A DNA stretch of 64,000 bases, taken from an uncultured delta proteobacterium. Lineage in GTDB: Bacteria > Desulfobacterota > Binatia > Binatales > Binataceae. Where the stretch lies: the NCBI GenBank assembly GCA_963711565.1, contig CAVQEQ010000002.1, forward strand, positions 1-64,000, given 5' to 3'. Position 1 is the stretch's first letter. Every line of letters begins with the position of its first letter. A program made the translations under genes and the position numbers. The notes below the pieces were generated by a model, which had not been told where the DNA came from, made no database searches, and worked only from the letters and a program-made list of their open reading frames with translations. Below, one piece after another: positions 7,168 to 48,593 of this stretch.

Positions 7168-7306
7168 TCCAACGTCACCCATCCAATTTAACTTGAAGGA
7201 ACGCGATGTGTGGGCCTGCGATGGTCGTCTTCACAGAGCGGAGACTACGCTAATCCGCTGTTGTGCTTGCGCAGCGCATCTAATTCCTGTAATTTATATT
7301 GGAGTC

Positions 7307-10024: not shown

Positions 10025-10031
10025 GACTAGT

Positions 10032-11436: not shown

Positions 11437-12204
11437 CTACGGCTGCTCTACTCTAGAAAGTCTGGGTTTAGTTGGACGCCGTTCGGCGAGGCCCAGCCCC
11501 GCGAAAGCGCAACCGTGGAATACTTGGCACGACGCACAAAGCGGCGCGCGCGCTCTGCAGACTAAAGCTGCGAAGTCGAGAATTGCCCAGTTCACCGAGA
11601 GACAGTTCTCAACGTCCACAACCTCCGCCGCCAGTCTTTGAAGGTAAGGGTCATATCGCAGATCAGCCAGATTCCGCGGGCCGAAGTACCTTTCCAATAC
11701 TCTCGCCATGTTCACGTCTAACAACGGCTGTCGTTCCCCGTGGCAGATCGTCAGAACAGCGTTCGCGATGTACTGACCCACTCCGGCGAGCGCTTCGATT
11801 TCCTCCCTCGTTCTTGGAAAGCGCCCCCCGCGGATCGCCAACTGTTGCGCTAGCCTCTTCAATGAAGCGGAACGGCGACGCCATAAGCCTATCGGTCGAA
11901 GAAAGTTCTTTAATTCTGATTGATTCGTGCGCGCGAGAGACTTCCATGATGGAAATTTTCGCACGAAAGCTCCAAAGAAGAGTGCGACTGTCTCGGCCCG
12001 TGTGCGCTGAAGAAGTGTCTCAGCCACAAGTTTCTGATACGTACTAGCTGCTTTACGCCGCCACGGGAGGTGCTGTCTGCCATTTTTTTCGGCCCATCCC
12101 AGAACGAGCCGACGAAATTCAGCCACTCTCTCCAATGCCAATGATTTTTCGCCCGTACGAGCATTGGCGCTGGATAGGACCAGTCCTCGCGCAGTCCTCG
12201 CCAC
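11437..12204 (-). CDS. HhH-GPD DNA glycosylase with 4Fe-4S motif (Mig/T:G-mismatch-like, MutY/Nth superfamily)
   Basis: LPWR, ETLLQRT, GVGQYIANAV, LDVNMARVLERYFG, C-x6-C-x2-C-x5-C; no MutT-like C-domain; GTG 12204 behind GGAGAAGGA is the preferred start. Confidence 0.85.
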   Translation of the reverse strand: MARTARGLVLSSANARTGEKSLALERVAEFRRLVLGWAEKNGRQHLPWRRKAASTYQKLVAETLLQRTRAETVALFFGAFVRKFPSWKSLARTNQSELKNFLRPIGLWRRRSASLKRLAQQLAIRGGRFPRTREEIEALAGVGQYIANAVLTICHGERQPLLDVNMARVLERYFGPRNLADLRYDPYLQRLAAEVVDVENCLSVNWAILDFAALVCRARAPLCASCQVFHGCAFAGLGLAERRPTKPRLSRVEQP

Positions 12205-12250
12205 GTGGCGCGATCCTTCTCCAAAATGGCCGCGCCCTTCCGGCTTGGCT

Positions 12251-19002: not shown

Positions 19003-19013
19003 AGTCGCTTCCC

Positions 19014-21113
19014 CTAGGCCTCCCGACGGAACTCGAGCTCACCGTTGTAATCGAGCACTAACCTGCCGATCTCTTGTCCGGACTCCCTAAACTCAACCCA
19101 TACCTGACCATCTGCGAGCCTTTCCTTGTCGCGCGATAGGCCAGCCGCGTAACCGTGACGAAGCCGCTCTAGCATCGCTGCCACCCCAGAGGGGAGACTC
19201 CCGTTGGCACAGCCATCTGACCTCCGTCGCAGCGCGACGTACAACTCGAATGTAAGCGGCAGAACGCTATCGCCTACTTCAATACAAGGCATGTCATAAG
19301 CAGGGCGCCCAGGCTTAATGCCCGGTGCTGGCCGCGGACGAATCCCGCTCCTCGGTCCTACAATGATGACGCTTTGCGTCATTCGAGTTTCAGCCTGTCC
19401 AAACGACGAGACCAACGAGCCAGCAAATTGATTGCCTCCCAAAAGATTGGCTACAAGCTGAGCTATTCTTGATAGCCTGCTTTGGTCTCGTAAACTTTCC
19501 TCGTACTCACTTAACAGTCCTTCGTTTGCATGCCTTCCAGCGCTCACCCCGATAATTCGCTTCACCACTGCCGAACTTAAGCGGCGCAAAAATTCGATTG
19601 CAGTTACTGCACTCTGCTTTTCTCGCCCCAAGACGTCCCATTCTTCCTCCGCGCACGCCAGCATCTGGATGAAGCTCTGGCCGAGCTCCGACAATTGCTC
19701 CTTGAATTCATCAAGCCCTTGTCAACATCCCTGCCCAAACTCGTTCTCGATTCGCTTGAGTAAGTCGTTTTCCGAATCACCGCACCACCGAGCCGGGTCG
19801 ATCCACAATCGGTGAACTCCGCGAAGCAAGATCCGAATATGCTTCGAGCTATCTGGTTCGGTGCGCCGGATAGTGTCGCAAACAGCTCGTGTCACCGTCG
19901 CTCCGGCGTTAGATGCTTCCGATCTAACCACGCGCAATTCCTCTTCGGCCGCTAACGTTTGGAACAAACGTTGCGAATACAGGCCACGAGCCAACGGGAT
20001 GATTGCGGTTGCGCGCTGAGCATTATTCGCGGCGTTGCGGTACCGCGACACGAGGTCGTGGACCCACGAACATGGATCCGGATAGGAATCGAAATCTGAC
20101 CACTGTCCGACGATCAGTTCTGCCGTTAGAGAAAACGCATCACGGAAGGACCATCGTTGCCCGGTGGCTAGCTCGCCGCGTCTGAGAATGCGGAAGAGCG
20201 CATCTGAAACCGCCTCGTCGCGAAGCGATTCGGCGTTCTCGCGCATCGGGCACAGCCGTCTCGAGTCGCAATCGTTGCATCGTCCATCCACCTCCCACTC
20301 TTCGACTGCCGTGGCACTCAGGACTATCTCGCTTATGGGCATCCTGCCATCACCGCGCGCCGTCAGGCTCTCAACGTCCAAAGGCCAGCACGTGAAACGC
20401 GGATCGGCAGCCAATGGCCAACACGTTGGTTGGTTTTCCGACAATGCTTCTAAGCCGAGAGCGGTAGCTCGAATGATCTGGTCCAACGCCTCGACAACCG
20501 GACTTCCAGGATATTCGTTGTGCGCCCTTGCTAACGCTCGGGCGAGCAGGCCGCGGTTCGCGCAGCACACGAAGACAGGCAGTTCGCGCTCTGACGAAGT
20601 GACCAAGTCTGCCACGTCCTCTACTAGCAAGTCGGCCGCGTCGGCGATGGCGTTATCGCTGGCCGAAGCGTCCTGAATCAGGGTTAGTCTTCGGATCGTC
20701 AGGCCGAATCGACTCCCGGAAACACCAACATCTCCGCCCGTTATGTTAACCCGTCTCGGCAGCAGCTTCCCGACCCCGAATCTCTGCCGGACGGCTGCAA
20801 CCAACGCGCCGCCGGAATCTAGATTCAAATCGAGCCTCTCCACGAAATCTTGAACCGCCTCCGACTTGCCGTTGCCGGGTCCGCCGATGAGGAAGATCCA
20901 ACGTGGGGCGGTCTCGTCGCCCCCGGCGATGCGAGAAGCTAAATCCCGGAGCCTCACGATGAGCCCAGTTAGAACCAGCGAGCCGATCGGGTTCCCCCAT
21001 CTCGCAAACGGCACACGGACACCGCCACGATCGTGTCCGTGCCAGCCCAGAAGATCTGCTACCCATTCGTTTTTGTTAGCTGGCACGAGCGCGTACCTCG
21101 TCCGATCCGGCAA
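19014..21113 (-). pseudogene. DptF/DndF-like P-loop NTPase interrupted by one in-frame TGA (19722-19724)
   Basis: GGPGNGKS, QDAS, CANRGLL, CxxCx5CP; the 463-aa and 226-aa ORFs share a frame and are joined by GC*QGLDEFKEQL. Confidence 0.72.
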
Positions 21114-22413
21114 CCATCTCGCTCCAAGTTTCCATCAGCACGTATCCCATTACTTCCGCGACAAACGGTGGCATTGCGTTCCCCACCTGGGTGTAGCGCG
21201 GACACTCTCGTTTCCGGCGCATTCCGCCAGTCGTGTATTTTCCCATGAACCCATACCAATCGGGGAAGGACTGCAGCCGCGCGTATTCGCGGACCGTCAG
21301 TATCCGTGGTTCAGAATAATGCAGAAAATCATCTGGCAACGTGGTGAGAGTATGGGAGGGTTTGTCCGGATCAAGGGGCACGATACAGTGCTTTCGAATC
21401 CCCAGACGATCACGGTCAGCCTGCGAAAGGCCAACGCCCTTCTTGCACGTCTTCAGGATTTTCGCGAAGTGGTCGATGGTATCAAGCTTGTGCCTGGGTA
21501 GTCTTAGGCTATTGGGAGCTTTCCCGCCTAACCCGGCGTGTAGCAGCCTCTGGTACGGAGTTTTCGGCCCCTCGTAATCGATCTGATTGAATCTGGGAAA
21601 ATCGTCGCATTCGACAAAATTCTTACCGGTAACCTCCAGGTCAGAGATTGCCTCCCGAGCCGTAACTGCCCTATCGATCGGCAGATCCTTCGATCTCAAG
21701 AACTCAATTCGCTTCGCCGAAACCAGCTGAAAAGGATTCTCCGGTTTGAAATTCGATCCGCGCGTGTCAACGGCGATCACAAACTGCCGTGGGCGCAACT
21801 GGGCGACTCCAAAATCAGAGGCGCTGAGGCATTCATCAAATACTTCGTAGCCCAACTCCTCCAAGCTATCGCGTAATCGCGCCAAAAACGGCCGCGCCGG
21901 TCTCCCGACCTGCGTCCGCCGCTCTTTACGTTTCGTTTTGCCGAATTCTGTAGCGATTCCCTTCACGTTCTCGAAAAGCACTAGTCGCGGCCTGATGGCG
22001 TCTACCATCTCAATGTATTGCTCGAACATGCGGTTCCGCGGATCATCTCGTCGGCGGCGCCCCGCATATGAAAAACCCTGACATGGCGGCCCCCCCGCCA
22101 CGAGGTCGATCTCTCCCCTCAGCTCGCCTAACTGCGAAGAATACTTTTTGAGGAAAGTACTGAGTCGGCAGGATTCCTTCGGAAGCCAGGATGGCCACTG
22201 AAACCGAAATCCGCCAGCGCGATCTATCAAGTTGGATTTGAGTGTCTCGAAGGCGTTCTCTTCTCTTTCAACCGCCAACACTCCTTGCCATCCGGCGGCC
22301 ATGAGTCCCAGCGAGAGACCCCCGCACCCGGCAAACAAGTCGATGAAGGTGGGTCCGTCCGCGATCTCATACCGCGAAACGCGAGCCCTTTCCTGCCCCA
22401 TGTTCCGTTTCAT
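21076..22413 (-). CDS. DNA (cytosine-5)-methyltransferase
   Basis: Motifs DLFAGCGG, GGPPCQGFS, ENVKG, QLRPR, TVREYARLQSFPD, QVGNA; exact start uncertain (22401-22434). Confidence 0.95.
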   Translation of the reverse strand: MKRNMGQERARVSRYEIADGPTFIDLFAGCGGLSLGLMAAGWQGVLAVEREENAFETLKSNLIDRAGGFRFQWPSWLPKESCRLSTFLKKYSSQLGELRGEIDLVAGGPPCQGFSYAGRRRRDDPRNRMFEQYIEMVDAIRPRLVLFENVKGIATEFGKTKRKERRTQVGRPARPFLARLRDSLEELGYEVFDECLSASDFGVAQLRPRQFVIAVDTRGSNFKPENPFQLVSAKRIEFLRSKDLPIDRAVTAREAISDLEVTGKNFVECDDFPRFNQIDYEGPKTPYQRLLHAGLGGKAPNSLRLPRHKLDTIDHFAKILKTCKKGVGLSQADRDRLGIRKHCIVPLDPDKPSHTLTTLPDDFLHYSEPRILTVREYARLQSFPDWYGFMGKYTTGGMRRKRECPRYTQVGNAMPPFVAEVMGYVLMETWSEMVAGSDEVRARAS

Positions 22414-22511
22414 GTCTACGAGTTCTTCACTCAAGATCTGCTCTTCCCCGACAAGCCGACGGCGAGGGACCGACCCGAATCAGGTCGGGGCGCCGAACTC
22501 GCGTGCACTCT

Positions 22512-23516: not shown

Positions 23517-23891
23517 ATGTCAGTTAACAAGGTGATCGTGATCGGCAATCTGGGAGCTAACCCCGACATTCGTGCTCTGCCGTCCGGGCAAAACGTGGCG
23601 AATTTCTCGTTGGCGACCACGGAGCGGTTTACGGACCGCAACGGTGCGAAACAGGAGCGCACCGATTGGCATCGGATCGTTGCATTCGGGCGGCTGGCCG
23701 ATACGTGCGAGCGGTTCCTGAGCAAAGGCCGTCAGGTTTACGTCGAAGGACGGCTTACTACCCGCCAGTACGAAGCCAAGGACGGCAGCGGCAGACGCTA
23801 CCGGACTGAAATCGTGGCGCGGCAACTCCGCCTGCTCGGCAAGCGCGCTGACGCGCCCAAGGCTGAAGCATCCGACGACATCCCGTTTTAG
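23517..23891 (+). CDS. ssb: Single-stranded DNA-binding protein
   Basis: SVNKVIVIGNLGANP, TDWHRIV, KGRQVYVEGRL, DDIPF tail. Confidence 0.96.
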   Translation: MSVNKVIVIGNLGANPDIRALPSGQNVANFSLATTERFTDRNGAKQERTDWHRIVAFGRLADTCERFLSKGRQVYVEGRLTTRQYEAKDGSGRRYRTEIVARQLRLLGKRADAPKAEASDDIPF

Positions 23892-23966
23892 TTCCCCACC
23901 ACGCGACGGGAGAGCCGCGCAAGCGGTTCTCCTCAACCATCCAAACCACAATCGGAGATCACGAAA

Positions 23967-24839
23967 ATGGACGTTTATCAAATCATAACCGACAAGATCA
24001 TCAATCTGCTTGAAAGCGGCGTCGTACCTTGGCGCAGGCCGTGGACCTCAACCGGACTGCCGCGCAACCTTGTCAGCAAGAAGCCATATCGCGGCGTCAA
24101 CGTTTTTCTGCTTTCGGCCTCGAAGCACGTTTCACCGTTTTGGCTGACCTACCGCCAGGCGAATGAACTTGGCGGACACGTCCGCAAAGGCGAGGAGAGC
24201 ACGATCGTCGTTTTCTGGAAGGTCGAAGATTTGAAGCACAGTACCGAAAACCTCGACAACGAACAGACCGAGGAGAAGACGCGCCGGCGGTTCCTGCTCC
24301 GCTACTATAGGGTTTGGAATCTGGAGCAATGCGAGTTTCCGCAAGCCGTGCTCGACAAGCTGCCGAAGATCGAAACGCACGAGCATGATCCAATCGAAGC
24401 GGCCGAGCGAATCATCGCCGGAATGCCAAACCCCTCAGAGATTCAACATACGGGCTCAAAGGCATTCTACAGCCCAATCACTGATCGAATCACCTTGCCA
24501 CCGCGCGAGCTCTTCGCGAGCGTTGAGGAATACTACGCAACGGCTCTGCACGAGACCGTTCATAGTTCAGGAAGTCCGAAACGCCTTGCGCGAGAAGGGA
24601 TATGCGAATCCTCGCCCTTTGGCTCCCCGGTATATTCCAAAGAAGAGATGATCGCGGAAATGGGAGCCGCTTACCTTTGCGCCGAGGCCGGAATCTCAAA
24701 TGCAGTCATTGAGAATCAGGCGGCTTATGTCGCCGGCTGGCTCAGGAAGCTTCGCGAAAATCGTAGGCTCTTGATCAATGCCGCCGCTCAAGCGCAGCAA
24801 GCGGCGGATTATATCCTCCGCAGACTCCGCCTCTCGTGA
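23967..24839 (+). CDS. ardC: ArdC-family ssDNA-binding antirestriction protein
   Basis: VPWRRPW, YRGVN, WLTYRQA, VRKGE, LHETVH, EEMIAEMG, AAYVAGW. Confidence 0.9.
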   Translation: MDVYQIITDKIINLLESGVVPWRRPWTSTGLPRNLVSKKPYRGVNVFLLSASKHVSPFWLTYRQANELGGHVRKGEESTIVVFWKVEDLKHSTENLDNEQTEEKTRRRFLLRYYRVWNLEQCEFPQAVLDKLPKIETHEHDPIEAAERIIAGMPNPSEIQHTGSKAFYSPITDRITLPPRELFASVEEYYATALHETVHSSGSPKRLAREGICESSPFGSPVYSKEEMIAEMGAAYLCAEAGISNAVIENQAAYVAGWLRKLRENRRLLINAAAQAQQAADYILRRLRLS

Positions 24840-33490: not shown

Positions 33491-33495
33491 ATTTG

Positions 33496-33780
33496 GTGTG
33501 CCCAGAATTCGAATGGGACGACAGCAAGGCCGCGAAAAATCTGCTGAAGCATGGAATCACGTTTGCTTTAGCGATTTCTGCGTTCCGCGACACCTTTGCG
33601 GTCGAGTATCCCGACGACCGGATGGACTATGGTGAAGACCGATTCATCCATATCGGTATGGCGGCAGGGCATTTATTGACAGTTGCTTTCACCGAACGGG
33701 CTGACAGCACCCGAATCATCTCCGCCCGTAGATCGACGAAGTATGAAGAAGAAATTTACCACAGCCAAAATCCGCGCTGA
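33496..33780 (+). CDS. brnT: BrnT-family ribonuclease toxin
   Basis: FEWDDSKAAKNLLKHGITF, DYGEDR, RIISARR. Confidence 0.92.
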   Translation: MCPEFEWDDSKAAKNLLKHGITFALAISAFRDTFAVEYPDDRMDYGEDRFIHIGMAAGHLLTVAFTERADSTRIISARRSTKYEEEIYHSQNPR

Positions 33781-36700
33781 CGGCACTGTTGTACGCGTTA
33801 GCCCGGATGGTCGGGAGGAGCCGCTCTCCATGACGGCCATTCCGCCCAAGACGGAAGCCGAGATTGAAGCGGCTGCTGCGGATGATATCGAGAATCCGCC
33901 GCTTTCGCCGGAACAGCTAAAACGTCTCCGACCCGTGCCTCGCGTTAAGACGCTACGCCGTGCCTTGGGATTGACGCAGGAAGAGTTTGCAAGTCGGTAC
34001 GGCATACCCATCGGAACGCTTCGGGATTGGGAACAAGGCCGAACCGAACCTGATCAGGCGGCCCGTGCATACCTCAATCTCATCGCCCGTGACCCGCTAA
34101 CGGCTGCTCGGTCCGCACGGGAGCCGGACTCGGACGGCGCGAGTACAGAACTCCCCACCTTTCAAGTTGGGCAACGCGTGCACTTGAAGGCGTCCTCATC
34201 GCTGCAAGGCGCAGTCATCGAAGTTCGCTCGCGCGCAAGTGGAGGTTTCTACTACAAGGTATTTCATTCCGCGGATCTTGTCCGCGAATACGACGAGGAA
34301 CAGCTTGCGGCAAGTGAGAAGGAGCGCTCTCTAGAGGACGCACTTGTTAGCGGGGAGTTTCTCGACAGCGGTACGTTTCGCGCAAGACTTACGGCCTCGC
34401 GAATCATCCCGCCCAACCTCGACAACATCTATGCGCTGTACGCCGCTCGTATCCAGCACGTTCCATTTCAGTTCAAACCATTGCTACGACTACTGCGTGC
34501 AGACCGTCCTCGCCTATTGGTCGCCGATGAAGTGGGAGTCGGCAAGACTATCGAAGCTGGTTTGATTCTCAAAGAACTAGAGGCACGCCAACGTATCGAA
34601 CGAGTTTTGATCGTGTGTCCGAAGGATCTGACGCAGAAGTGGCGCGCCGAGATGCGCCGGTTCGATGAGAATTTTCAGATCCTTGGCGCGGACCAATTGC
34701 GCTACTGTGTGCGGGAAACGGACTTGGATGGCGTGTGGCCGCAGAATTACTCGCGTTCGATTGTAAATATCGAGTTGCTCCGACTAGGGGAGTACTTGTG
34801 GGGAACGCAGAACGGTCATGTCGAACCAGGGCTCGCGACGCTCCAGCCCTCGCCACGGTTCGATCTCCTGATCGTGGACGAGGCCCATCACCTTCGCAAT
34901 CCGGACACGAACAGCTTTGAGCTTGGGCAGTTCATTTGCGACGTTAGCGAAGCGGTAGTCTTCCTCTCCGCGACTCCGCTACATACTGGGTCTCACAATC
35001 TTTACGCTCTTCTGTCTCTCTTGCGTCCCGAGCTTTTCCCTACAAAAGAGGTTTTCGAGGAAATGCTCGAGCCCAACCCGTATCTACTCCAGGCGATGCG
35101 GCATGTGCGAGCACGTACTCCCAAAGACACCTGGGCATCGGTCGCTGCTGAATCCTTGGACCAAGCGGCGGACACCTCTTGGGGGCGTCGGGTTCTGACC
35201 GGAGAACCTCGCTTTGAAGCTTGGCGCGATAGGCTTTCTGAAAGCAGAACCTTGAGTGACGACGAACGGATCCGCTGCTTAAGAGATTTGGAAGACCTTC
35301 ACACATTGTCTCACGTCGTTAACCGCACGCGGCGACGTGACATCGGCAGGTTTACAATTCGTGAGCCAGCTACAATTGCCGTACCGCATACACCTGAGCA
35401 GGCAAGCTTTTATGCAGAACTCATAGCTTTCCGGCGAGCTGTCCTGAGTTTGCACCTGGACCCTCGAACTGTGGCTCTAGTGGCGACTACGTTGGAGCGT
35501 CAAGCTGCAAGTTGTCTTCCAGCCTTGATTCCTCTGCTCAACGTCTTTCTGCGAACGGGCAGGTTCGCTGGGTCAGCTCTAAGCGATGACGTGGAAGCAT
35601 CCTACGACGAGGTCGCCCTGCCCTCGGACCTCGTAGACAAGGCACATCAATTGCGGCATTTGGCCGCGGGCCTACCGCCTGAGGACCCAAAGCTCGACCA
35701 ACTTGTCTCGATCGTACGAACTGCTATCGAGACCCCAGGCCCAGGAAAGGTTCTAGTCTTCTCGTATTTCCTACACACCTTGAACTATCTGAGGGCGGAG
35801 CTTCAGAAACGTGGAATTCGGGTGGGCTTGGTGACGGGCCAGGTGCCGGACGAGTTGCCGCTACGTTCCGGAGGGGAACAAGTGCTGACAAGGGAGCAAC
35901 TCCGTGGGCGCTTTCGTCTCGCTCGAGAGCATAAGGACGCCCTTGACGTGTTGCTCTCCTCCGAAGTGGGATGCGAAGGACTCGACTATGAGTTTTGTGA
36001 TCGGCTTGTAAATTACGACATTCCTTGGAACCCGATGCGTATCGAGCAACGAATCGGACGCATCGACCGGTTTGGTCAACAAAGCGAGAAGGTCCACATC
36101 TTCAATTTCATCACGCCTGGGACGATAGAGGAGCGGGTCTTCTTTCGGTGCTTCGAACGGCTGGGAATATTCAAGGACACGATTGGCGATCTAGAAGAAG
36201 TACTCGGGGATGTTCTTCAGGACCTTACGAAGATGGCGCTCAATCCGGGTCTGACGCCCGAGCAGGCTGAGGAGAAGGCACGCCAGCTAGCGGACAATGC
36301 CATAAGGCAGGTCGAAGAACAGCGCCGCCTCGAAGATGAAGGCGCGAGCCTGTTCGGATTGGACCCGGGGGCGTGGGAAATCGGAGACATTGAGAGTCAA
36401 GGGCGTTTTGTCGCGCCCGACGAACTCTTTCAGCTCGTGGAAAAGTTCGTCTCGCGATCTGAGCTGCAAGGTAGGCTCACCCGCGACGAGAGTACGCCCG
36501 GACTTGTAAATCTACGTTTGAACAAAGAAGGTCGCGCTGAGGTGATTCAGAGAGTCCGTTCCATCTCCGATGGCACTCGTGCGGGCGATCGCTCTACGCT
36601 TGCCTTTCTTAGGTGGCTGGAAGGCAACGAACCTTACTTGTCCATGACATTCGATCAAAGGACGGCATTGGAGCGGCGAGATCTTCCCTTCGTCACTCCT

Positions 36701-37297
36701 CTTCATGTACTCGCCAAGCTAGCAGCCCTTGACCACATGACGGGTGGACCTTTTGTGTCGCGGCTAAAAATTCGCGAAGAGTCGGTACCTTCCGGTCGTT
36801 TCCTCTTCGTATGCGAGCTCTGGGAAGCTATCGGTGCCCAGCGAGATACAAGATTGCGTGGCTTCGCTTGGGATTTGGAGCGCGGAACTTTAGCGTCCGA
36901 CGTGTCTGCCAACCTCATAAAGCTCTTGAGCCGAACTGCTGATTCATCATCACCACCCGATCCGATCGTCGCCATACATGAGGGACTCGCAGCCGTGGAC
37001 GAAGCCTCACGTGGCAGCCGGCTGGCAGAAATTGAGGATCTAAGGCAGCGGAACGAAGCAGTGATTGCCAGAAAACTCGCCAGTCTCGATGCATACCATC
37101 AGAACCGCCTTGCGAGAGTGGATGCTGAACTTCAGCAAGCGACAGACGAGCGAATCATTCGGATGAAGACTGCAGAACGCGCTCGGATCGAAAGCGACCA
37201 CGAGGAGAAGCGGCGCGAAATTGAAGCGGCCCGCAACGCCGACATCGCCAGTAAGCGAATCGCCGCCGGCGTGCTGGAAATCAACCATGGCAACTAA
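33743..37297 (+). CDS. Fusion: XRE-HTH antitoxin (HigA-like) + SNF2/RapA-type helicase
   Basis: LGLTQEEFASRYGIPIGTLRDWEQGR, then ADEVGVGKT, DEAHH, SATP, EGLD, NYDIPWNPMRIEQRIGRIDR in one frame. Confidence 0.88.
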   Translation: MKKKFTTAKIRADGTVVRVSPDGREEPLSMTAIPPKTEAEIEAAAADDIENPPLSPEQLKRLRPVPRVKTLRRALGLTQEEFASRYGIPIGTLRDWEQGRTEPDQAARAYLNLIARDPLTAARSAREPDSDGASTELPTFQVGQRVHLKASSSLQGAVIEVRSRASGGFYYKVFHSADLVREYDEEQLAASEKERSLEDALVSGEFLDSGTFRARLTASRIIPPNLDNIYALYAARIQHVPFQFKPLLRLLRADRPRLLVADEVGVGKTIEAGLILKELEARQRIERVLIVCPKDLTQKWRAEMRRFDENFQILGADQLRYCVRETDLDGVWPQNYSRSIVNIELLRLGEYLWGTQNGHVEPGLATLQPSPRFDLLIVDEAHHLRNPDTNSFELGQFICDVSEAVVFLSATPLHTGSHNLYALLSLLRPELFPTKEVFEEMLEPNPYLLQAMRHVRARTPKDTWASVAAESLDQAADTSWGRRVLTGEPRFEAWRDRLSESRTLSDDERIRCLRDLEDLHTLSHVVNRTRRRDIGRFTIREPATIAVPHTPEQASFYAELIAFRRAVLSLHLDPRTVALVATTLERQAASCLPALIPLLNVFLRTGRFAGSALSDDVEASYDEVALPSDLVDKAHQLRHLAAGLPPEDPKLDQLVSIVRTAIETPGPGKVLVFSYFLHTLNYLRAELQKRGIRVGLVTGQVPDELPLRSGGEQVLTREQLRGRFRLAREHKDALDVLLSSEVGCEGLDYEFCDRLVNYDIPWNPMRIEQRIGRIDRFGQQSEKVHIFNFITPGTIEERVFFRCFERLGIFKDTIGDLEEVLGDVLQDLTKMALNPGLTPEQAEEKARQLADNAIRQVEEQRRLEDEGASLFGLDPGAWEIGDIESQGRFVAPDELFQLVEKFVSRSELQGRLTRDESTPGLVNLRLNKEGRAEVIQRVRSISDGTRAGDRSTLAFLRWLEGNEPYLSMTFDQRTALERRDLPFVTPLHVLAKLAALDHMTGGPFVSRLKIREESVPSGRFLFVCELWEAIGAQRDTRLRGFAWDLERGTLASDVSANLIKLLSRTADSSSPPDPIVAIHEGLAAVDEASRGSRLAEIEDLRQRNEAVIARKLASLDAYHQNRLARVDAELQQATDERIIRMKTAERARIESDHEEKRREIEAARNADIASKRIAAGVLEINHGN

Positions 37298-40629: not shown

Positions 40630-41610
40630 TCACGATAGGCGACTTCGCCCGTCGCGGTATGGGCGACCGTTCACGCGGCCGTTCGTTTCGTGCCCATCGT
40701 AGTGTTCAAGTCGGCTGTAAATCGTGCGGCGGCCGACGCCCAAAATCTTTGCAGCGCGGACCTTGTTGCCGCCGGCGTATGTGACCGTGCGGCAAATCAG
40801 TTCGTCGACGACATCTTTCATTGAAGAACCCAAGTGAACGATGAAGGAACTGTCCGGCCTCGCGCTCGCCTCAATCTCTGAGGGCAGGTCGCTGAGCGCC
40901 AACTGAGTCGTTTCGGAGACAATTACGGCATGCTCGATTGCGTGTTTCAATTCGCGGATGTTGCCCGGCCACCAGTAGGCGGCTAGGACGTTCAGGCAGT
41001 CATCATCGATGCTCGTGATCCGCCTGCCATGCTTTTCGTTCGTTCTTTGAATGAAATGCTCGATCAAGAAGGGCAGGTCCTCGATACGCTCTCTGAGAGG
41101 CGGAAGATGTACTGAAAAAACCTTCAGCCGAAAGTACAGGTCCTCGCGTAGCAACCCGTCTCGAAGCGCCCGGTCGATCGAACGGTTCGTCGCCGCCAAC
41201 ACCCGCACGTTGACGGGTATCTCTTTCGCACCCCCGATCCGCAGCACCGTTCCCTCCTCAAGCACACGAAGGAGCTTGGCCTGCGTTTCGCATCGCATCT
41301 CCGTAATTTCGTCGAGGAGGAGTGTTCCGCCGGACGTACTCTCGAAGAGTCCCTCGTGCCGACGATCCGCGCCTGTGAACGCGCCCTTTTCGTGGCCAAA
41401 CAACTGGCTCTCGACCAGCGTTTCAGGAATCGCGGCACAGTTGACGGGCATGTACGGACCGTCCTTGCGCCATGACAGTTGGTGAATGAGTTGAGCCGTG
41501 ATCTCTTTTCCGGTCCCGCTTTCGCCAGTGATCAGAACAGGCACATCGGAGGAGGCGATACGTTCGATCAGGCTCATGATCCGGCGCATCGGTACAGACT
41601 GGCCAATCAT
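40630..41610 (-). CDS. Sigma54-dependent activator lacking an N-terminal regulatory domain
   Basis: GESGTGKE, GHEKGAFTGA, LDEI, WPGNIREL, Fis-type HTH; AGGAG RBS before ATG 41610. Confidence 0.92.
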   Translation of the reverse strand: MIGQSVPMRRIMSLIERIASSDVPVLITGESGTGKEITAQLIHQLSWRKDGPYMPVNCAAIPETLVESQLFGHEKGAFTGADRRHEGLFESTSGGTLLLDEITEMRCETQAKLLRVLEEGTVLRIGGAKEIPVNVRVLAATNRSIDRALRDGLLREDLYFRLKVFSVHLPPLRERIEDLPFLIEHFIQRTNEKHGRRITSIDDDCLNVLAAYWWPGNIRELKHAIEHAVIVSETTQLALSDLPSEIEASARPDSSFIVHLGSSMKDVVDELICRTVTYAGGNKVRAAKILGVGRRTIYSRLEHYDGHETNGRVNGRPYRDGRSRLS

Positions 41611-41728
41611 GACGGACTCCTACGCGGATATTTTTCACCATCTCCACGCCACTCCCGCCTGTGGATAAATAGTCGCCCCGGCCTAACACGTCAACAATAA
41701 TTGAGGTATTAGGAGACGATTCCGGCGA

Positions 41729-42358
41729 ATGGGTAAAGCTAAGAAAATGGCTCGCGGCGAGAAATTTCAGTTTGTAGGCTATTATAACTGTCTCGATTTC
41801 GTTAACACGGAGTTCACGGAACAATGCGGACGGCGGATCGACTCGCTCCGGAGTTTCGCCGATCTGATTGATTGGCTTGGCGAATCGCGGCTTCTCAATC
41901 GAGCGCAGTTGCAGAACGCTCCGAAGCTGTGGGGAAGCGGGCATGCTATGGAGCGCATTTTTCAAGACGCGCTCGCCTTGCGCAGGGCGCTGCTCGCTAT
42001 GGCCGAAAAGCTGGCGACACGCCGGCGCGTGCCACGGGAATCACTTGAAGCGATCAATAAGATGATTGAAAAGCGTCCGGCCTGCGTGCTCCAAGCAAGG
42101 CGCTCAGGGCGCTTCGAGGAAATGACGCGCCTTGATTTGAACGAACCCGAGCAGTTGATGGTGCCGATCGCGCAGTCGGCAAGCGATCTGCTCTGTCACG
42201 GAGATCCAGCGCTCGTCAAACGATGCGCCAATCCCGCTTGCGGGACCTTTTTCTACGACACTTCTAAGAATCACACGCGACGATGGTGCAGCACGACCGG
42301 ATGCGGCAATCGGATGCGGGTCGCCGCGCATTATCGCCGGACTCGCGCTCTTGGCTAG
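41729..42358 (+). CDS. ABATE/CGNR zinc-finger protein
   Basis: LDFVNT, CANPAC..FYDTSKN..RRWC...CGNR. Confidence 0.9.
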   Translation: MGKAKKMARGEKFQFVGYYNCLDFVNTEFTEQCGRRIDSLRSFADLIDWLGESRLLNRAQLQNAPKLWGSGHAMERIFQDALALRRALLAMAEKLATRRRVPRESLEAINKMIEKRPACVLQARRSGRFEEMTRLDLNEPEQLMVPIAQSASDLLCHGDPALVKRCANPACGTFFYDTSKNHTRRWCSTTGCGNRMRVAAHYRRTRALG

Positions 42359-42366
42359 CGATCCGC

Positions 42367-43180
42367 TCAGGTCTCTGGCCCTTCGTTTTTAACCTGTAGG
42401 CCATACCTAGCGAGTATGGCCTGTCCCCCCGGTGTTTCGATTCCGAGGCTGGCTCCTCGCCGAAGGCCGCCCGTGTACTGAATCACGTTCCTCGATTTGG
42501 GTATCGCCCAGTCTTCCAGTCGGCGCGTGATGATCATCGTGACCTTGCCAGTCGCCGCTTTCTTCGCCAGTTCGCACGCGAAGAGCCGAGTCCGTTTTGC
42601 GGACGCGAGATGGGGTAGGACCCGATGCTCACGAAAGGAAATGGAGTGGTATGGCACCAACTCCAGCGCCGCCACTCGTTGCGAAAGATCCCGTAGAGCG
42701 TGGAGATAGCGTCCTCCGAACTTAGCATCCGCTATCGCTGTTGCCACCTCACGGAATTTCCCCTCCCACCATGTAAACCCGCTGTGCCAGCAAAACTGTG
42801 GGTCCAAATACAAGAACGGAAACTCCACCTTCGTCAAACGTTGCCGAAGATTTGATTGCAATCGCTGCCTGAATTCTGGCATGCACCATTCGGCGTAGTA
42901 ATCGATGAAATTGAGTCCCGGATTCAGCTGCAGAACGAAAAATATCTGCCCTCGCGAGGTCTCCAGCGTACGGCACCGGAAGCAAGGAGAAGTGAAGGCG
43001 AGGATCTGAGAAAGCGCCAAATCGAGGGCTCAGAACGAACCTGCGAAAGTCATACGTCGGCAAATCAGGTTTGCTCTCTGAGTACTGGGACAACACGGCA
43101 CGATCGTCAGGATGAACGAACGGGGGATTCTTCAAGTCGCACTTCGTCCAAAATTCTACGATCTGTTTGATTTGGCCCAT
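42367..43180 (-). pseudogene. UDG-superfamily (Brig1-like) protein, frameshifted in the homopolymer at 42938-42942
   Basis: Removing one base joins PVPYAGDLARADIF to VLQLNPG...ELVPYHS. Confidence 0.6.
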
Positions 43181-43300
43181 GCTCTCTTCCGCGAGTGTCG
43201 CGGCGATCCTCCTCTTCGTTGGGACCATACCATGCTGCCAGTTCGCGATCGGCGAATGACCGCCATTTTCGTCCATTGACATTGAAGCTGCCGGGGTGTG

Positions 43301-43411
43301 TGTGCCGATTCTGCACATGCACACTTCGCGACCTTGCCGAGGCTCCGAAGCGCACCGACTCCGAGCGCCATCTGCTGACGAACTTCGCCTATTTGGGGCA
43401 CCATGTTTGCA
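43301..43411 (+). promoter_or_regulatory. Sigma54 -24/-12 promoter with candidate upstream enhancer
   Basis: GGGCAC-CATGT-TTGCA 43396-43411; TGTGC-N7-GCACA 43301-43317. Confidence 0.55.
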
Positions 43412-43480
43412 CTCCGAGACTACTCGACAGATGCGGATGTGCGGCGCGGGCGGTCACTTCATCTCTTGGAGGAGCCTCAA

Positions 43481-43831
43481 ATGCCCGAGCTCAAAAATCC
43501 CGAGGCGAAACAGACTGATCAGATTCCCTCGATTCTCGCCGGCTACCTAACGCCAACGAATTTGGCTCAAGCGCTCGGAGTCTCAGAGCGCACGGTAGCT
43601 CGCTGGCATCGTTTCCGAGAGGGTCCACCACGCGTCGAAATCGGGCGCAAAGTCTTCTATCGTCTCGAGTCCGTCAACGCATGGATCGCGTCGTGTGAAC
43701 GCCACGAAGCGAGAGCCGATCGGGTCAGGCGAAGACCGCGCTTGCGCGCGGTCGAGCCGTCACGTGTTTCGGTCTCGATGCAGGGGAACGACGTCGGCGC
43801 GCTTCCGGGACCGAGCGGCAGCCACAATTGA
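43481..43831 (+). CDS. AlpA/excisionase-type HTH protein (recombination directionality factor)
   Basis: YLTPTNLAQALGVSERTVARW..GPP...GRKVFY; GGAGGAG RBS; convergent with integrase. Confidence 0.82.
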   Translation: MPELKNPEAKQTDQIPSILAGYLTPTNLAQALGVSERTVARWHRFREGPPRVEIGRKVFYRLESVNAWIASCERHEARADRVRRRPRLRAVEPSRVSVSMQGNDVGALPGPSGSHN

Positions 43832-44962
43832 AGCGAAACGATTCGTTGCCTGACGCAGCGGATCGTCGGCCAAATGCGCGTAGCGCGCTGTGGTCTGCGG
43901 CTGAGTGTGCCCGAGTAGGCGTCCTACGATGGGAAGCGACATTCCGGACGAGACCAAGTGACTTGCGTAGGTATGCCGGAGGTCGTGAAGGCGCACGTTT
44001 TTCAGATGCGCCAGTTTACAAAGCGCCATCCACACGCGCTTAATTTCCTGAGTCGGTTTGCCGGCCACTTCGCCAGGGAAGAGATAAGGACTGTCGCTTT
44101 TTTCTTTCATAGAAACGAGAAGTTGCACGGCAGGGGCACTTAACGGCACATGTTCGGTACGCTTCTGTTTCGTGTGATGGCTGGGCTTTGTCCAAACGCC
44201 GAGCTCCAGATTAAATTCAGCCCAGGTTGCCGTCAGCGCTTCGCCCTTTCGGGCGCCGGTCAACAGCATTAGACGGATCGCATTTGCAGAGGACTGGTTC
44301 GGATGCTTGTCCAAGGCGTCGCAGAGATGCTCGATTTCTTCGGTCGAAAGCCAGCGGTCGCGCTTCTCCTCGCGATATTTCGGGACTCCCTCGCACGGGT
44401 TGTCCGCACGCCATTCCCAGTGCTTCGCCAGGTTCAGCATTTTGCTGAGGAGCGCGCGGACTCTGTTAGCTTGATACGGCGAATCCTTAAGCGATTGGTG
44501 CAGCTCCTCGACATCGCGACGCTTCAGATCGGCAACCTTGATCTTGCCGATCTTGGGGAGAACGTCGTTACGCGCCATGCTTTCGTTCGACCTAATTGTG
44601 TTCGGTCGCAGATAAATCTTCGCGTGCCGTTCCATGTAATCGTTGAACAGGTCTTCGATTGTCGGCGCTTCGCGACGGTGCTCTTTCTCGGCGAGCGGAT
44701 CTTCGCCCGTGCGAAGACCGCCGCGGAGCTGAATGGCCTCCTCGCGAGCAGCCGCGGCGCTGAGTTCGGGATATCGGCCGATCGTGTAGCGTCGCTTTCG
44801 TTCATTGATCCGATAGTCGAGGACGAAGGAGATTACGGAGTTGGCCGTGATGCGCACGCCGAAGCCAGGAATCTCTTCGTCGTACAAGATGCGGCTTCCG
44901 GTGTGCGGCGCCTTGAGCGAGCGTATGATCTTTTCAGTTATGCGGTCTGCCGATACAGCCAT
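43760..44962 (-). CDS. Tyrosine integrase with arm-binding domain
   Basis: GFGVR...TIGRYP, TGARKGE, HDLRH, LGH...TARYAH. Confidence 0.95.
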   Translation of the reverse strand: MAVSADRITEKIIRSLKAPHTGSRILYDEEIPGFGVRITANSVISFVLDYRINERKRRYTIGRYPELSAAAAREEAIQLRGGLRTGEDPLAEKEHRREAPTIEDLFNDYMERHAKIYLRPNTIRSNESMARNDVLPKIGKIKVADLKRRDVEELHQSLKDSPYQANRVRALLSKMLNLAKHWEWRADNPCEGVPKYREEKRDRWLSTEEIEHLCDALDKHPNQSSANAIRLMLLTGARKGEALTATWAEFNLELGVWTKPSHHTKQKRTEHVPLSAPAVQLLVSMKEKSDSPYLFPGEVAGKPTQEIKRVWMALCKLAHLKNVRLHDLRHTYASHLVSSGMSLPIVGRLLGHTQPQTTARYAHLADDPLRQATNRFASIVAAARSRKRADVVPLHRDRNT

Positions 44963-44964
44963 TC

Positions 44965-45105
44965 TGTGTCACCACTGTGTCACCAAGAAATGTGATCTGA
45001 GTGGCTTTGATTATGACTCCAAATCAGCAGGCTGTCAATGAATGGCGTTGATTTATCAGGCTATAAATGCGGGTGGTCGAATTGTTGTGTCACCACGTAT
45101 CACCA
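44965..45105 (+). repeat. Integrase arm-type direct repeats TGTGTCACCA
   Basis: Copies at 44965-44974, 44976-44985 and 45086-45095, plus degenerate GTATCACCA at 45097-45105. Confidence 0.75.
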
Positions 45106-45123: not shown

Positions 45124-45170
45124 GATTCGTAATCAGCAGGTCGCCGGTTCGAATCCGGCGGGTTGCTCCA
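45124..45170 (+). other. att site: 3' half of tRNA-Thr(CGT), not an intact tRNA
   Basis: Anticodon loop TTCGTAA, T-arm GCCGG-TTCGAAT-CCGGC, CCA end; no D-arm or 5' acceptor strand upstream. Confidence 0.85.
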
Positions 45171-45206
45171 GTAAATCCTCCGGGCCAAATCTACTGATTT
45201 TCCGCT

Positions 45207-48200
45207 TCAACGAACGAGCGTAGGAATTGGACTCTTGGGATCAGAGGCAGAGATTGAAGTTGACTTGAGGTCAGCCAAAAGGGACTTTGCGGCCAGGAGC
45301 TCCGGGCAATCAGATCCTTCGCCGAACCAATCGTGAATGGGTTCTAACAGACGAAGCGCCTCTGCTTGTCTCCGACTGCCCATGAGCATGCGGCTCAAGC
45401 TGTTCGCCGCGCGCAATTCCAGAGTCTTCGCGCCGCGCTCGCGAGCAATGTCTATAGCCTTCATAAAGCTCTGCTCGGCCTCGGACTCAGCCTTCGCGAC
45501 GTTGGCCGGAGTGGAAGAGCCGCGCGCCACCTGCTTGAGCTTCAATTCGCCGTGAATCCGATGTATTTCAGATTCCACGTATCGCTCATCGTTACGTTCC
45601 ATCACCTCGCGAGCTTCGGCTAGCAACGCCAACGCTACATCGACTTGTCCGAGATTGCCCAGTGCTTCGGCCGTGGCCGATCGAGCCCAGGTATGCGCCA
45701 GCTCGTAGCCGGCGGCTGAATACCCGCCAGGGTTGCCACCGCCTGCCGTCAACTGATCTATTCGTCCCTGAGCTGCCGAACCGATAGCGCGATAAGCAAT
45801 CAGCGATTCCGCGAAGAAAGAAAATCCATACTCTTGGGTAAGTGTCAGGCCTTCGGTGACTACTCTTTCCGCGCCCGCATAGTCGTGGCGCATCGTGTAG
45901 TACATGCCGATCATGGAGAGGCACCATGTGAGAGTGAATGGATATCCCAAGTCGCGGGCAAGGCTGATGGCCTCTTGCGCTTCTTTCTCGGCTTGATCCG
46001 GATAACCAAGAGTCCAAAGTGTCATCGCGTCAAAACAGTGACAACTCACGGCGGGGTCTTGCCCGAATTGAAACGCCAACGCTCGATGCCTTTGCCGATC
46101 GTACAACCCGCGCCCTCGCTCGAAACTAGCGTGCGCTTCGGCGAATTGGCCCTTGAAAAATCGACTGCAGCCTGAGGCCCACGCGGCTTGAATCACCATT
46201 CCTTCATTCTGCATGCGCGGCGCCAGACGAGACATTTCATCGGTATAACTGATCGCCATCTCGTGCTCGCCGCGAACCAGATGGTAACTCCATAGCCCGG
46301 ATAGGACTGAGAAGAGCCTTGGATCATCTTCGAGACCCTGGCATAGCTCGTGAGCACGCCTATAGGTGCTTCCCATTTCGGGCGCATACCACCCTTTGGT
46401 AGCCAGCAGCGCCAAGCCATAATCGAGCTGTATATCCAGTTCGCGCCGCGCTCGCTCTTGTGAGGAGGGCAATACCTTGAGCAGCTCCAACGCATTGTGG
46501 AAATAACGAAGCGCTCCATCGTAAGCACTCTGCTTAAGTGCTTGTTGCGCGGCTAGCGCGAGGAATTGAACAGTCTTATCAGGATCAGCAGCGCGCCCCG
46601 CTTGCCAAAGGTGGTGCGCGAGATTCGCGGCTTGATCCTCGAGAGCATTGGCGTGAACGCGCTCGATTCCGCTGACGACATTGAGATGGAGCCGTTGACG
46701 ACGCGGGGCGGAGAGCTCACTGAGGACTGCACTCCGAATGAGCTCGTGCGAGAACTGGAAGGTCGCCTCCGGGTATCCCAAAGTCGAGTATATGAGACCG
46801 GCCTTTTCTACTTCCTCAACGTAATCCAGCAACGAGTCCGCATCGATGTTAGTCGAGGCCTCGAGCAGCTCGAAGGTGAACGATCTTCCCAGGACCGCGG
46901 CCGGACCCAGGATTTTTCGCGCTTCATTGCTTAGACGGGCCAGCCGCCGTCCTATGACCAGGCGCAGGCTTTGCGGCACGTCGATCTCTGCAAAATTGAG
47001 ATCCCGCCGAAACTCGCCGCTTGCATCGATAAGCTTGCCGCGCTCGACCAGATGACGGAAAAGTTCCTCGACGAAGAGCGGATTGCCGTCGGTACCCGAG
47101 TAGATAAAGTTCACGACCTCATGCGGCGGCTCTCTTCCACTTAGCGCGCGAATCATTTCAGCGACCGCAGTCTGCGGCAGGCCGCGCAGGCTGATCCGCT
47201 CGAGCATATGAATACGCAGCAACTCGTCGAGGGTCCGCGCGAGAGGTGCGGCGGAGTCGATCTCGTTGTCACGAAAGGTACCTAACAACAGAACCGGAAT
47301 GTTTGAGATCGACCGCGCGATATGATTCAGCAGCGACAAGGTCCCTTCATCGGCCCAGTGCAGGTCTTCGAACAGCAGAAGGAGCGGGCCGCTCGCCGCG
47401 GTCCTGCCGAGAAGTTCCAAAACCGCATTGAAAAGGATCCTTCGCGACTGTTCCGGCGAAAGTTCAAGAGGAGGTGGAATCTGCGGGAAAAGGCGGCGCA
47501 GCTGAGGCATCAGGCGAGCCATCTCGCCCGCGTCATCCCCCAGCGCGGCCAGGAAGGCATTCGGACTCGTCGATTGAGCCATCGCGGACTCAAGCATTTC
47601 AACGAACGGATTGAACGGAAGAGCGTTATCGCGATCGTAACAACCGCCGATAAGCGTAAAGAATCCTCGCGCCGAAGCTTCGGCCGCGAACTCGGCGGCT
47701 ATTCGGGTCTTGCCGACGCCGAGTACTCCTCCGATCATCGCCACTCGACCCTCGCCGCCGAGAACCCGCTCCAGCATTCGACGCAGTACCGATCGTTCCG
47801 CTTCTCTGCCGACAAACGTGGTGCGATCGGCGAGCGACTGCACGAGACTGGTTTCGGACCGGGAAAACACTGGCGCAGCGACTTCAGCGCCTGTCGAAGG
47901 CTTGATGGCCTCGTCGAGCGTGAATTGCCAGGTTACCCAAGTCCGTGGATTGGCAAGATAGCAGCTAAACGACCCCGTCCTGATCGATCGACCCAACAGT
48001 TCGCCCAGTTGGCTGTGATGCTCGGAAATCTTCTGCAGCGCGGATTTGATCGCACGGGTGACGTTGAGCCGCGCGCGCTCGGCTGCCGATCCTGCAAACC
48101 GGTCTCGCCCGCCGAGACCAACCGCGCCGGCGATCTCGCGCTGGAGAAAATCAATCTCGGACTCGACCTTGGCGGCGCGCGTTTCGTCACCGCGCTCGCG

Positions 48201-48593
48201 CAGGTCCTCGAGCTCCTCGCGAAGTTCGCCGAGTCTGCGCTGGTATTCCTGCTTCGCTTTGGCGTCGAGCATTTCGCCGGCGTGGCCCAGTCCACCGACG
48301 CTGACGATGGGATCGCCAAGCAGCGAAGTCTTGTCCGCGCTCTTATCTTCGGCGGGGGCGCTGGAGCCAGAACCGCTCAAGAGATCCAGTGAATGGAACT
48401 CTTCGCCGGGATGCTGCAGCAGGCGTTGAATGTAGCCGAGACCCTTGATGTCCTTGAGCGAGAACCTGGCATCGCCGTAGCCGACGGTCCAGTACTCGCC
48501 GTTGCGCGCGAATACTCCCGTCTGCGCGCCGGCAACAGGCTGCGACCTGGGATGGCTTCGAGGCTCGGTTGAGCCGCCATCTTTCTGTGTCAC
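45207..48593 (-). CDS. STAND/AAA ATPase-TPR signalling protein
   Basis: FVGREAE, GVLGVGKTR, FEDLHWAD, GNPLF, FSHELIR, LELRAA. Confidence 0.85.
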   Translation of the reverse strand: MTQKDGGSTEPRSHPRSQPVAGAQTGVFARNGEYWTVGYGDARFSLKDIKGLGYIQRLLQHPGEEFHSLDLLSGSGSSAPAEDKSADKTSLLGDPIVSVGGLGHAGEMLDAKAKQEYQRRLGELREELEDLRERGDETRAAKVESEIDFLQREIAGAVGLGGRDRFAGSAAERARLNVTRAIKSALQKISEHHSQLGELLGRSIRTGSFSCYLANPRTWVTWQFTLDEAIKPSTGAEVAAPVFSRSETSLVQSLADRTTFVGREAERSVLRRMLERVLGGEGRVAMIGGVLGVGKTRIAAEFAAEASARGFFTLIGGCYDRDNALPFNPFVEMLESAMAQSTSPNAFLAALGDDAGEMARLMPQLRRLFPQIPPPLELSPEQSRRILFNAVLELLGRTAASGPLLLLFEDLHWADEGTLSLLNHIARSISNIPVLLLGTFRDNEIDSAAPLARTLDELLRIHMLERISLRGLPQTAVAEMIRALSGREPPHEVVNFIYSGTDGNPLFVEELFRHLVERGKLIDASGEFRRDLNFAEIDVPQSLRLVIGRRLARLSNEARKILGPAAVLGRSFTFELLEASTNIDADSLLDYVEEVEKAGLIYSTLGYPEATFQFSHELIRSAVLSELSAPRRQRLHLNVVSGIERVHANALEDQAANLAHHLWQAGRAADPDKTVQFLALAAQQALKQSAYDGALRYFHNALELLKVLPSSQERARRELDIQLDYGLALLATKGWYAPEMGSTYRRAHELCQGLEDDPRLFSVLSGLWSYHLVRGEHEMAISYTDEMSRLAPRMQNEGMVIQAAWASGCSRFFKGQFAEAHASFERGRGLYDRQRHRALAFQFGQDPAVSCHCFDAMTLWTLGYPDQAEKEAQEAISLARDLGYPFTLTWCLSMIGMYYTMRHDYAGAERVVTEGLTLTQEYGFSFFAESLIAYRAIGSAAQGRIDQLTAGGGNPGGYSAAGYELAHTWARSATAEALGNLGQVDVALALLAEAREVMERNDERYVESEIHRIHGELKLKQVARGSSTPANVAKAESEAEQSFMKAIDIARERGAKTLELRAANSLSRMLMGSRRQAEALRLLEPIHDWFGEGSDCPELLAAKSLLADLKSTSISASDPKSPIPTLVR

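Follow-up and report, generated by a model that had tools for sequence, protein, structure and literature searches.

The first 64,000 nucleotides of contig CAVQEQ010000002.1 (assembly GCA_963711565.1, an uncultured delta proteobacterium of the Binataceae), hereafter the window, contain the right end of a P-type integrative and conjugative element (ICE) integrated at a tRNA-Thr gene. We conclude that this ICE probably drives its own excision through sigma-54: a sensor-less activator encoded by the element would bind a palindrome ~110 nt upstream of the predicted start and open the -24/-12 promoter of a predicted excisionase gene, and the small helix-turn-helix (HTH) protein made from it would then trigger excision. 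The amount of activator would set the switch, through a sigma-70 promoter with a candidate operator for a CGNR zinc-finger protein and a DnaA-box-like site, and another box, before trbF, would place the transfer region under sigma-54. A first-pass annotation of the window had proposed that the ICE drives an excisionase-like gene through sigma-54 with its own activator, and every comparative test run supported this at the level of sequence. The box before the excisionase-like gene stood; a conserved second box at the transfer operon had been missed. The features of the window are collected in Table 1.

Table 1. Features of the window, with strand and supporting evidence
Feature	Position	Strand	Evidence or remark
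trbB (cut)-C-D-E-J-K-L, 3' part of the transfer region that starts with trbF on contig C3	1..5993	+	
ssb and ardC	23517..24839	+	common to the sibling ICE
Sensor-less sigma-54 activator, 326 aa	40630..41610	-	Pfam, motifs, dN/dS
DnaA-box-like 9-mer overlapping the activator's predicted start region	41660..41668	-	candidate
Activator's predicted sigma-70 promoter (TTGACG and TATTTA, 17 nt apart)	41666..41694	-	TTGAC-N17/18-TA(T/C)TT shared across subgroups
Inverted repeat CTAAY-N20-RTTAG over the activator -35, candidate CGNR operator	41683..41712	.	inferred
ABATE and CGNR zinc-finger protein, predicted DNA-binding regulator	41729..42358	+	Pfam
Variable cargo, two overlapping open reading frames between the CGNR gene and the palindrome	42367..43324	-	absent from relatives
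Predicted enhancer, palindrome 43301-43317 plus TGCACAC tail	43296..43324	.	conservation; top profile site of the ICE; resembles AtoC site
Sigma-54 -24/-12 box GGGCACCATGTTTGCA	43396..43411	+	sequence and conservation
G/T-rich leader motif and ribosome-binding site	43430..43474	+	leader motif in 37/54 distinct promoters
Excisionase-like winged-HTH protein, 116 aa, core ~72 aa	43481..43831	+	HTH_17; tail overlaps int 3' end
Tyrosine integrase with an arm-binding domain; its gene converges on the HTH gene	43760..44962	-	Pfam
TGTGTCACCA repeats, candidate arm sites	44965..45095	.	three copies at this end, two similar ones at the opposite end
att core, 55 nt duplicating the 3' part of tRNA-Thr(CGT)	45124..45178	+	full gene at C3:1568621-1568696

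The promoter lies where the annotation had placed it. The box has the GG-N10-GC spacing at 43396-43411, and the ATG of the HTH gene (43481) follows 70 nt past it, preceded by GGAGGAG at 43468-43474. By the usual sigma-54 numbering, which we assume to apply here, transcription would start at about 43422; the palindrome TGTGC-N7-GCACA (43301-43317), described as ~110 bp upstream of the start, is centred at -113. It belongs to a conserved upstream element (43296-43324) that is longer than the palindrome first noted. Outside the long open reading frames (ORFs) of the ICE, a box-trained profile gave high scores to two boxes only, those of the HTH gene and of trbF. A single box is weak by itself: a match was found in 9 of 100 shuffles of the window, and genome-wide there are 37 GGCAC-N5-TTGC sites against 34 to 50 at other spacings. 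As the 5-nt spacing is thus not enriched, the lone box match was not used as evidence. An integration host factor (IHF) site between palindrome and box was considered and rejected, being present in 1 of 49 promoters only. The two ORFs of variable cargo just upstream of the promoter gave no match in other loci and no convincing Pfam family.

What carries the argument is conservation. A search starting from the activator returned 62 loci, 51 of which were examined (the start of the gene was missing in the 11 omitted). Among these, 23 reach a homologue of the HTH gene; the exact GGCAY-N5-TTGC box is present in 22 of the 23, and the palindrome, within one mismatch, in all of them, so that conservation of both motifs upstream of xis in related ICEs with the activator, the check proposed with the annotation, came out as predicted. 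In two of the remaining loci both motifs persist but the HTH gene is deleted or broken; one sequence stops within the box, another 18 stop in under 2.9 kb without getting that far, and 7 are distant or fragmentary. When 25 distinct sequences were aligned on the palindrome, the GGC and TTGC columns were 100% conserved and the five spacer columns 56 to 72%, with an average of 64% over the 67 columns that separate palindrome from box. Because it is conserved in relatives, we consider the box to be real and not a chance match.

Searches from other starting points agreed. The composite pattern had 16 matches in 401 genomes of the class, and the reversed pattern none. In the host family, eight of nine matches adjoin such an activator, and the contig of the ninth stops after the CGNR gene; outside it, five of the seven matches were fetched, and the queries used detected no HTH-integrase module there. 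Starting from the HTH gene (29 loci of 35 matches), the exact box was found in 9 of 12 close homologues, with one more at one mismatch, in 2 of 5 intermediate ones, and in none of 12 distant ones. For the HTH type of a sibling ICE in the same genome, 26 of the best 30 loci have the box, and none of eight HTH genes beside related integrases has box or palindrome. The box and palindrome are thus conserved with the HTH-integrase module, and they show what is expected of a sigma-54 promoter: GG-N10-GC with conserved contacts and a free spacer, upstream of a gene, and a conserved upstream activator site in the range of ~80-200 nt (77 to 195 nt in 49 distinct promoters). In a viral collection, no close activator was found (8 distant matches), and the composite motif was unmatched.

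A survey of the host family, in which 165 genomes were searched for short-frame activators, yielded 40 fetched regions which, with 6 earlier ones, made 46. Activators of this group are present in 42 of them, 40 with enough upstream DNA; the exact box lies within 6.2 kb in 36 of these 40 loci, and a small HTH-like gene then follows in 35 of the 36. The small HTH genes behind the box are of five types (4 loci lack Pfam support), the integrases beside the cassette differ in sequence and orientation, and the att pieces, 1.7 to 2.4 kb from the palindrome, belong to 10 tRNA genes. The distance between activator and box ranges from 0.2 to 5.8 kb across loci, and the spacing of palindrome and box is fixed per subgroup. 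Judging by these comparisons, the promoter module is retained while its downstream HTH and integrase partners are exchanged. Three cassettes in the genome studied here hold the four best enhancer-profile sites of its 4.8 Mb, with a profile trained on such sites. Among the regions fetched, the activator is held by 32 of the 165 family genomes, and the cassette-bearing elements at the ten tRNA genes carry defence cargo. At loci L152, L157-L159 and L317, two palindromes stand back to back with a 17-nt period, after the CGNR gene or before trbF, and the box is sometimes missing. Locus L086 has an activator (75% identity) and a CGNR gene on a contig titled Acidiferrales, another phylum, which points to cross-phylum transfer or to a binning error; the composite motif was not found in the genome of that locus.

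The activator is intact. The description of a sensor-less GAFTGA activator divergent from a CGNR gene was borne out by Pfam domains and coordinates: Sigma54_activat starts at residue 1 (PF00158, 223 bits) with no sensor domain before it, and is followed by a lid and a C-terminal Fis-type HTH (HTH_8 over its cut-off). Walker A and B motifs, GAFTGA, arginine finger and sensor II are all present, and the catalytic motifs are invariant or nearly so in 16 sequences. Ratios of nonsynonymous to synonymous substitution (dN/dS) of 0.13 to 0.22 against 8 relatives indicate purifying selection. The protein falls below the cut-offs of the equivalogs for PspF (TIGR02974, 249 bits against 443.55) and AtoC (309 bits against 714, and it has no receiver domain), and no pspA was found among the scanned neighbours. 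Its closest relatives are receiver-type proteins of the host lineage, at 52 to 58% identity. FastTree on all rows gave a sensor-less clade at 0.86; in an IQ-TREE phylogeny of 47 chosen rows the receiver-type group fell within it, and the approximately unbiased (AU) test did not reject a clade (p 0.48). These trees neither establish nor reject a single origin of the sensor-less group. The sensor-less activators also share an Asn-Gly-rich C-terminal tail after the HTH (40630-40700 in the window), which the receiver-type relatives lack.

We infer that the activator binds the palindrome, in part from its recognition helix, GRRTIY (pattern xRRxxY), which resembles SRRALMY of E. coli AtoC; the nearest receiver-type relatives have SAKTLY or SLKTLY. 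Among 26 loci with an RR helix, 23 match at least 10 of the 12 palindrome positions, and three of six non-RR loci match 9 or fewer. This pairing is suggestive, and only that, of covariation between helix and site.

The second box lies at the other end of the element, outside the window (C3:1569627). Both ICEs of the genome have a GG-N10-GC box 82 to 84 nt before trbF, even though their sequences are unrelated further upstream. Reading the best 52 of 155 trbF matches, we found the box at -79 to -84 in 20 of 20 homologues with at least 90% identity, 2 of 8 at ~70%, and 7 of 24 at 54 to 58%, a total of 29 of 52; in four others a variant stands at -66 to -68, and the last 19 are without a box. A second trb lineage has it in all 13 loci chosen (one of them among the 52). 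Through this box sigma-54 is likely to control the entire transfer region (trbF-G-I, traF, traD, relaxase, coupling protein, trbB-L). Further conserved motifs were seen around it. In the second lineage (L284-L299), a GCACTA motif, absent from the window ICE, stands 51 to 57 nt before the trbF box in 13 of 15 loci; it resembles the palindrome tail and could be a local, weak activator site. The trbF leader (L253:2170-2200) has a conserved inverted repeat, GAGCAC-N14-GTGCTC, just past the predicted start, which would suit an operator or an RNA hairpin. Covariation for a hairpin was weak (equalled by 17 of 500 shuffles, with two-sided change in 2 pairs), and none is claimed.

Near the trbF box, no palindrome was found within 1.5 kb upstream in 22 of 23 loci, and the leader scores low on the enhancer profile. 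In the window ICE the palindrome is at least 48,442 nt from the trbF box when integrated, against 2,800 nt on the circle (about 4.2 kb on the circle of the sibling ICE). According to PMC5696343, activation in vivo was about tenfold with an NtrC enhancer 2 kb upstream, and at 11.7 kb the enhancer retained about 2% of the near effect. Excision might then also wire up conjugation: circularisation would bring the sole enhancer to the trbF promoter, and one activator would fire excision and then transfer, on the circle only. We put this forward tentatively, as an idea with more against it than for it. Among 31 loci read to 1.5 kb, 7 have trbF 0.3 to 3.3 kb inside an att site, as do all 18 that were read further; this distance is loosely constrained, and the local GCACTA motif of the second lineage also speaks against such delivery. 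The exceptional locus L258/L145 (G435:C1:21712-22624) has lost HTH gene and integrase by deletion, and its palindrome lies 181 nt before the trbF box, a natural fusion of the two ends.

The role given to the HTH protein rests on its position, on Pfam HTH_17 and on a fold match below Z 8, and excisionase is a prediction from these. The protein has a small winged-HTH fold and is encoded beside a tyrosine integrase. A single-sequence model (mean pLDDT 64.5) matched best RdfS (8dgl, Z 7.3, root-mean-square deviation (rmsd) 5.0, 62 aligned residues) and the GIsul2 excisionase (8c3t, Z 7.2, rmsd 2.0, 56 aligned). The sigma-54 promoter might be real and the protein mainly a transcriptional regulator of later ICE genes, AlpA- or RdfS-like, rather than a recombination directionality factor (RDF). 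MerR-like and BldC regulators score within 1 to 1.5 Z of the excisionases, the window protein misses TIGR01764, the sibling type has an extra 75-residue N-terminal part, and RdfS itself activates promoters (PMC5882170). But the HTH gene adjoins the integrase, the two genes are exchanged as a pair, excisionases head the fold matches, and the sibling type passes the TIGR01764 cut-off; a mainly regulatory role is fairly improbable. The two roles do not exclude each other, and, since RdfS is reported as both excisionase and transcription activator (PMC5882170), the HTH protein may have both.

As the activator has no sensor domain, its amount is likely to set the switch. The inverted repeat over its -35 is present in 34 of 34 distinct close loci and, by a looser pattern, in 1 of 25 loci without an intact CGNR gene. 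The 9-mer at 41660-41668, which resembles the DnaA-box consensus, recurs in 33 of 34 distinct close loci; most sibling-type loci also have it, though elsewhere in the region, and several subgroups lack it. These conserved features of the promoter, the prediction that CGNR proteins bind DNA (PMC2954205) and the constitutive activity reported for RtcR without its sensor domain (PMC9879122) lead us to favour control by amount, through the activator's own sigma-70 promoter. The annotation had likened the activator to PspF, controlled in trans, for which we found no support, the conserved features sitting in that promoter. Proteins that hold such activators off are known: PspA acts on PspF, and HrpV on HrpS. 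The missing sensor domain, and a CGNR gene that is divergently linked in most subgroups, would suit an activator restrained by a partner protein, with the CGNR protein as candidate, instead of by its own transcription. We hold this to be unlikely, though not far-fetched, given the predicted DNA binding of CGNR proteins, the repeat over the -35 that accompanies the CGNR gene, a sibling subgroup that keeps the cassette without an intact CGNR gene, and the fact that no other conserved candidate inhibitor was found.

Other explanations concern the promoter itself. The host genome has rpoN with an intact RpoN box and encodes 17 proteins with a Sigma54_activat domain, any of which might read the palindrome as the true enhancer-binding protein (EBP), leaving the element's activator a dispensable passenger; a third, broken cassette with palindrome and box, beside which no activator gene was found, and boxed trbF genes in genomes without a detected activator would fit. 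Yet the best palindromes of the genome occur only in element cassettes, the helix of the nearest host relative differs, purifying selection acts on the activator, and 36 of 40 loci have it linked to the cassette, which makes a host protein quite improbable. It is more improbable still that the promoter mainly silences the convergent int, by antisense transcription or a parked sigma-54 polymerase. In the window type HTH gene and int do converge, with a 72-nt overlap, but in most other types they are co-directional behind the same promoter, and the HTH core is under purifying selection. Lastly, the shuffled windows and the unenriched spacing would allow box and palindrome to be chance matches or neutral inherited sequence; we give this almost no credence, as contact positions are invariant and the spacer variable, the motifs are kept across unrelated HTH and integrase genes, and the controls lack them (0/8 and 0/12).

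Several observations weigh against a sigma-54 switch operated by the element's own activator. Four of the 40 activator loci lack the exact box, some close HTH homologues are stranded without it, decayed copies are common, and the relatives are not independent of each other. The covariation rests on six non-RR loci, only three with clearly altered sites, and the window HTH protein misses TIGR01764 with a fold match under Z 8. An activator was detected in no more than 21 of the 34 genomes whose trbF is boxed, which also counts against enhancer delivery; in ten genomes picked for a boxed trbF without activator, a profile search of these fragmented assemblies found no full-length copy. Contig G228:C25 has an activator and a boxed HTH gene, yet an unboxed trbF. 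The sequencing runs are uninformative and revealed neither a transcript start or RNA level nor binding or an attP junction: contigs of an RNA run gave no cover at the promoter, one of them spanning both divergent genes, so that it may be DNA, and contigs of four runs included an attL contig for the element (in run X1) and no attP junction.

By its anatomy the element is an ICE. It starts at C3:1568650, crosses an assembly gap and ends at C2:45178, a length of at least 51 kb, with its two ends on separate contigs. Pfam and sequence matches identify an integrase and att direct repeats at a tRNA gene. The part on C3 includes trbF-G-I, traF, traD and a VirD2-like relaxase, and with the trb genes of the window the host genome has a type IV secretion system and the start of the relaxase gene. 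The coupling protein of this ICE falls in the assembly gap; its gene was located in a relative, where relaxase, coupling protein and trbB-E abut on one strand. TrbB and TrbE were identified by scanning, and the remaining trb genes of the window were named by order and size.

The sibling ICE (C1:1-7203, reverse, and C4:1-59300) is inserted in the 5' half of tRNA-Ser(GCT). Its trb backbone is 92 to 94% identical to that of the window ICE, its integrase and HTH gene differ, and it has its own 326-aa activator (57% identity), two palindromes and one box; cross-activation between the two ICEs is plausible. The third cassette (C4:59429-60618, - strand), on the other side of the same tRNA-Ser, has a palindrome, a box, a frameshifted HTH gene and a partial integrase. 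Cargo of the window includes, at 6448-10808, a CBASS type III-like set (HTH/peptidase-like gene, TRIP13-type ATPase, two HORMA-sized ORFs, cyclase, probable nuclease), with scan support for the cyclase (NF041117 over cut-off) and the ATPase only. What looks like a defence cluster, named by eye, lies at 11437-22434: one ORF is MutY-like, another encodes a 1737-aa protein whose end is RuvB-like, and a third resembles a DNA cytosine methyltransferase gene. At 33493-37297, a BrnT-type toxin gene is followed by an HTH antitoxin-like domain in frame with an SNF2 helicase (1204 aa), which may reflect a fusion or the loss of a stop codon. Directly outside the att site, 45207-48593 encodes a 1128-aa AAA-ATPase/TPR protein.

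PspF and HrpR/HrpS are sensor-less EBPs made of a GAFTGA AAA+ domain and an HTH only, and the activator shares this architecture; it differs from PspF in scoring far below the PspF model cut-off and in a neighbourhood with no identified inhibitor gene. Tn4371-type and ICEMlSym-type ICEs have P-type trb systems. The window ICE has, like them, a trb secretion system, a TraF peptidase, a VirD2-like relaxase with DUF3363, a coupling protein and a tRNA target, a likeness of content; its gene order is permuted (trbF-G-I first, trbB-L last) and its regulators differ. AtoC, at E. coli atoDAEB, has the same domain core and a similar helix (SRRALMY, against GRRTIY or SRRNLY here), and a site that, as tabulated in PMC3118216 (Table 5), ends in TGCACA and is resembled by the palindrome here. 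AtoC differs in having a receiver domain and a kinase partner, half-sites 6 nt apart against 5 here, and a catabolic operon as target. SetCD of SXT/R391 and FseA of ICEMlSymR7A are, like the activator here, encoded by their elements and turn on xis or rdfS (PMC5812530, PMC5882170), and SetCD turns on int and tra genes as well (PMC5812530). They are, as described there, FlhCD-like or frameshift-made, whereas here an ATP-driven AAA+ EBP, a -24/-12 promoter and a distant palindrome would do the work. The geometry of Tn916 is the same, excision joining the xis-int end to the transfer genes at the other end, but its transfer genes are promoterless and reached by read-through (PMC5812530). As trbF here has its own sigma-54 box, and as int in the window type faces the promoter, the enhancer and not a transcript would cross attP.

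In the literature searched (titles and abstract starts, most subscription papers lying outside the search), no sigma-54-driven excisionase or transfer operon is described. In the accessible text of one ICE review, RpoN appears only in one reference title, and the ICE regulators covered are repressors or activators of other kinds, none of them using sigma-54 (PMC5812530). The parts of the circuit are known, and their use as an ICE on-switch is likely to be new. The cassette is common in the host family, and activator, site and promoter form a compact, testable circuit. A sigma-54 promoter needs an ATPase to open it and is silent until then, a property well suited to so costly and all-or-none an undertaking as excision and mating. 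If the tentative delivery of the enhancer to trbF proved true, site-specific recombination would be delivering an enhancer within a bacterial mobile element, and excision would be placed ahead of transfer by a new means.

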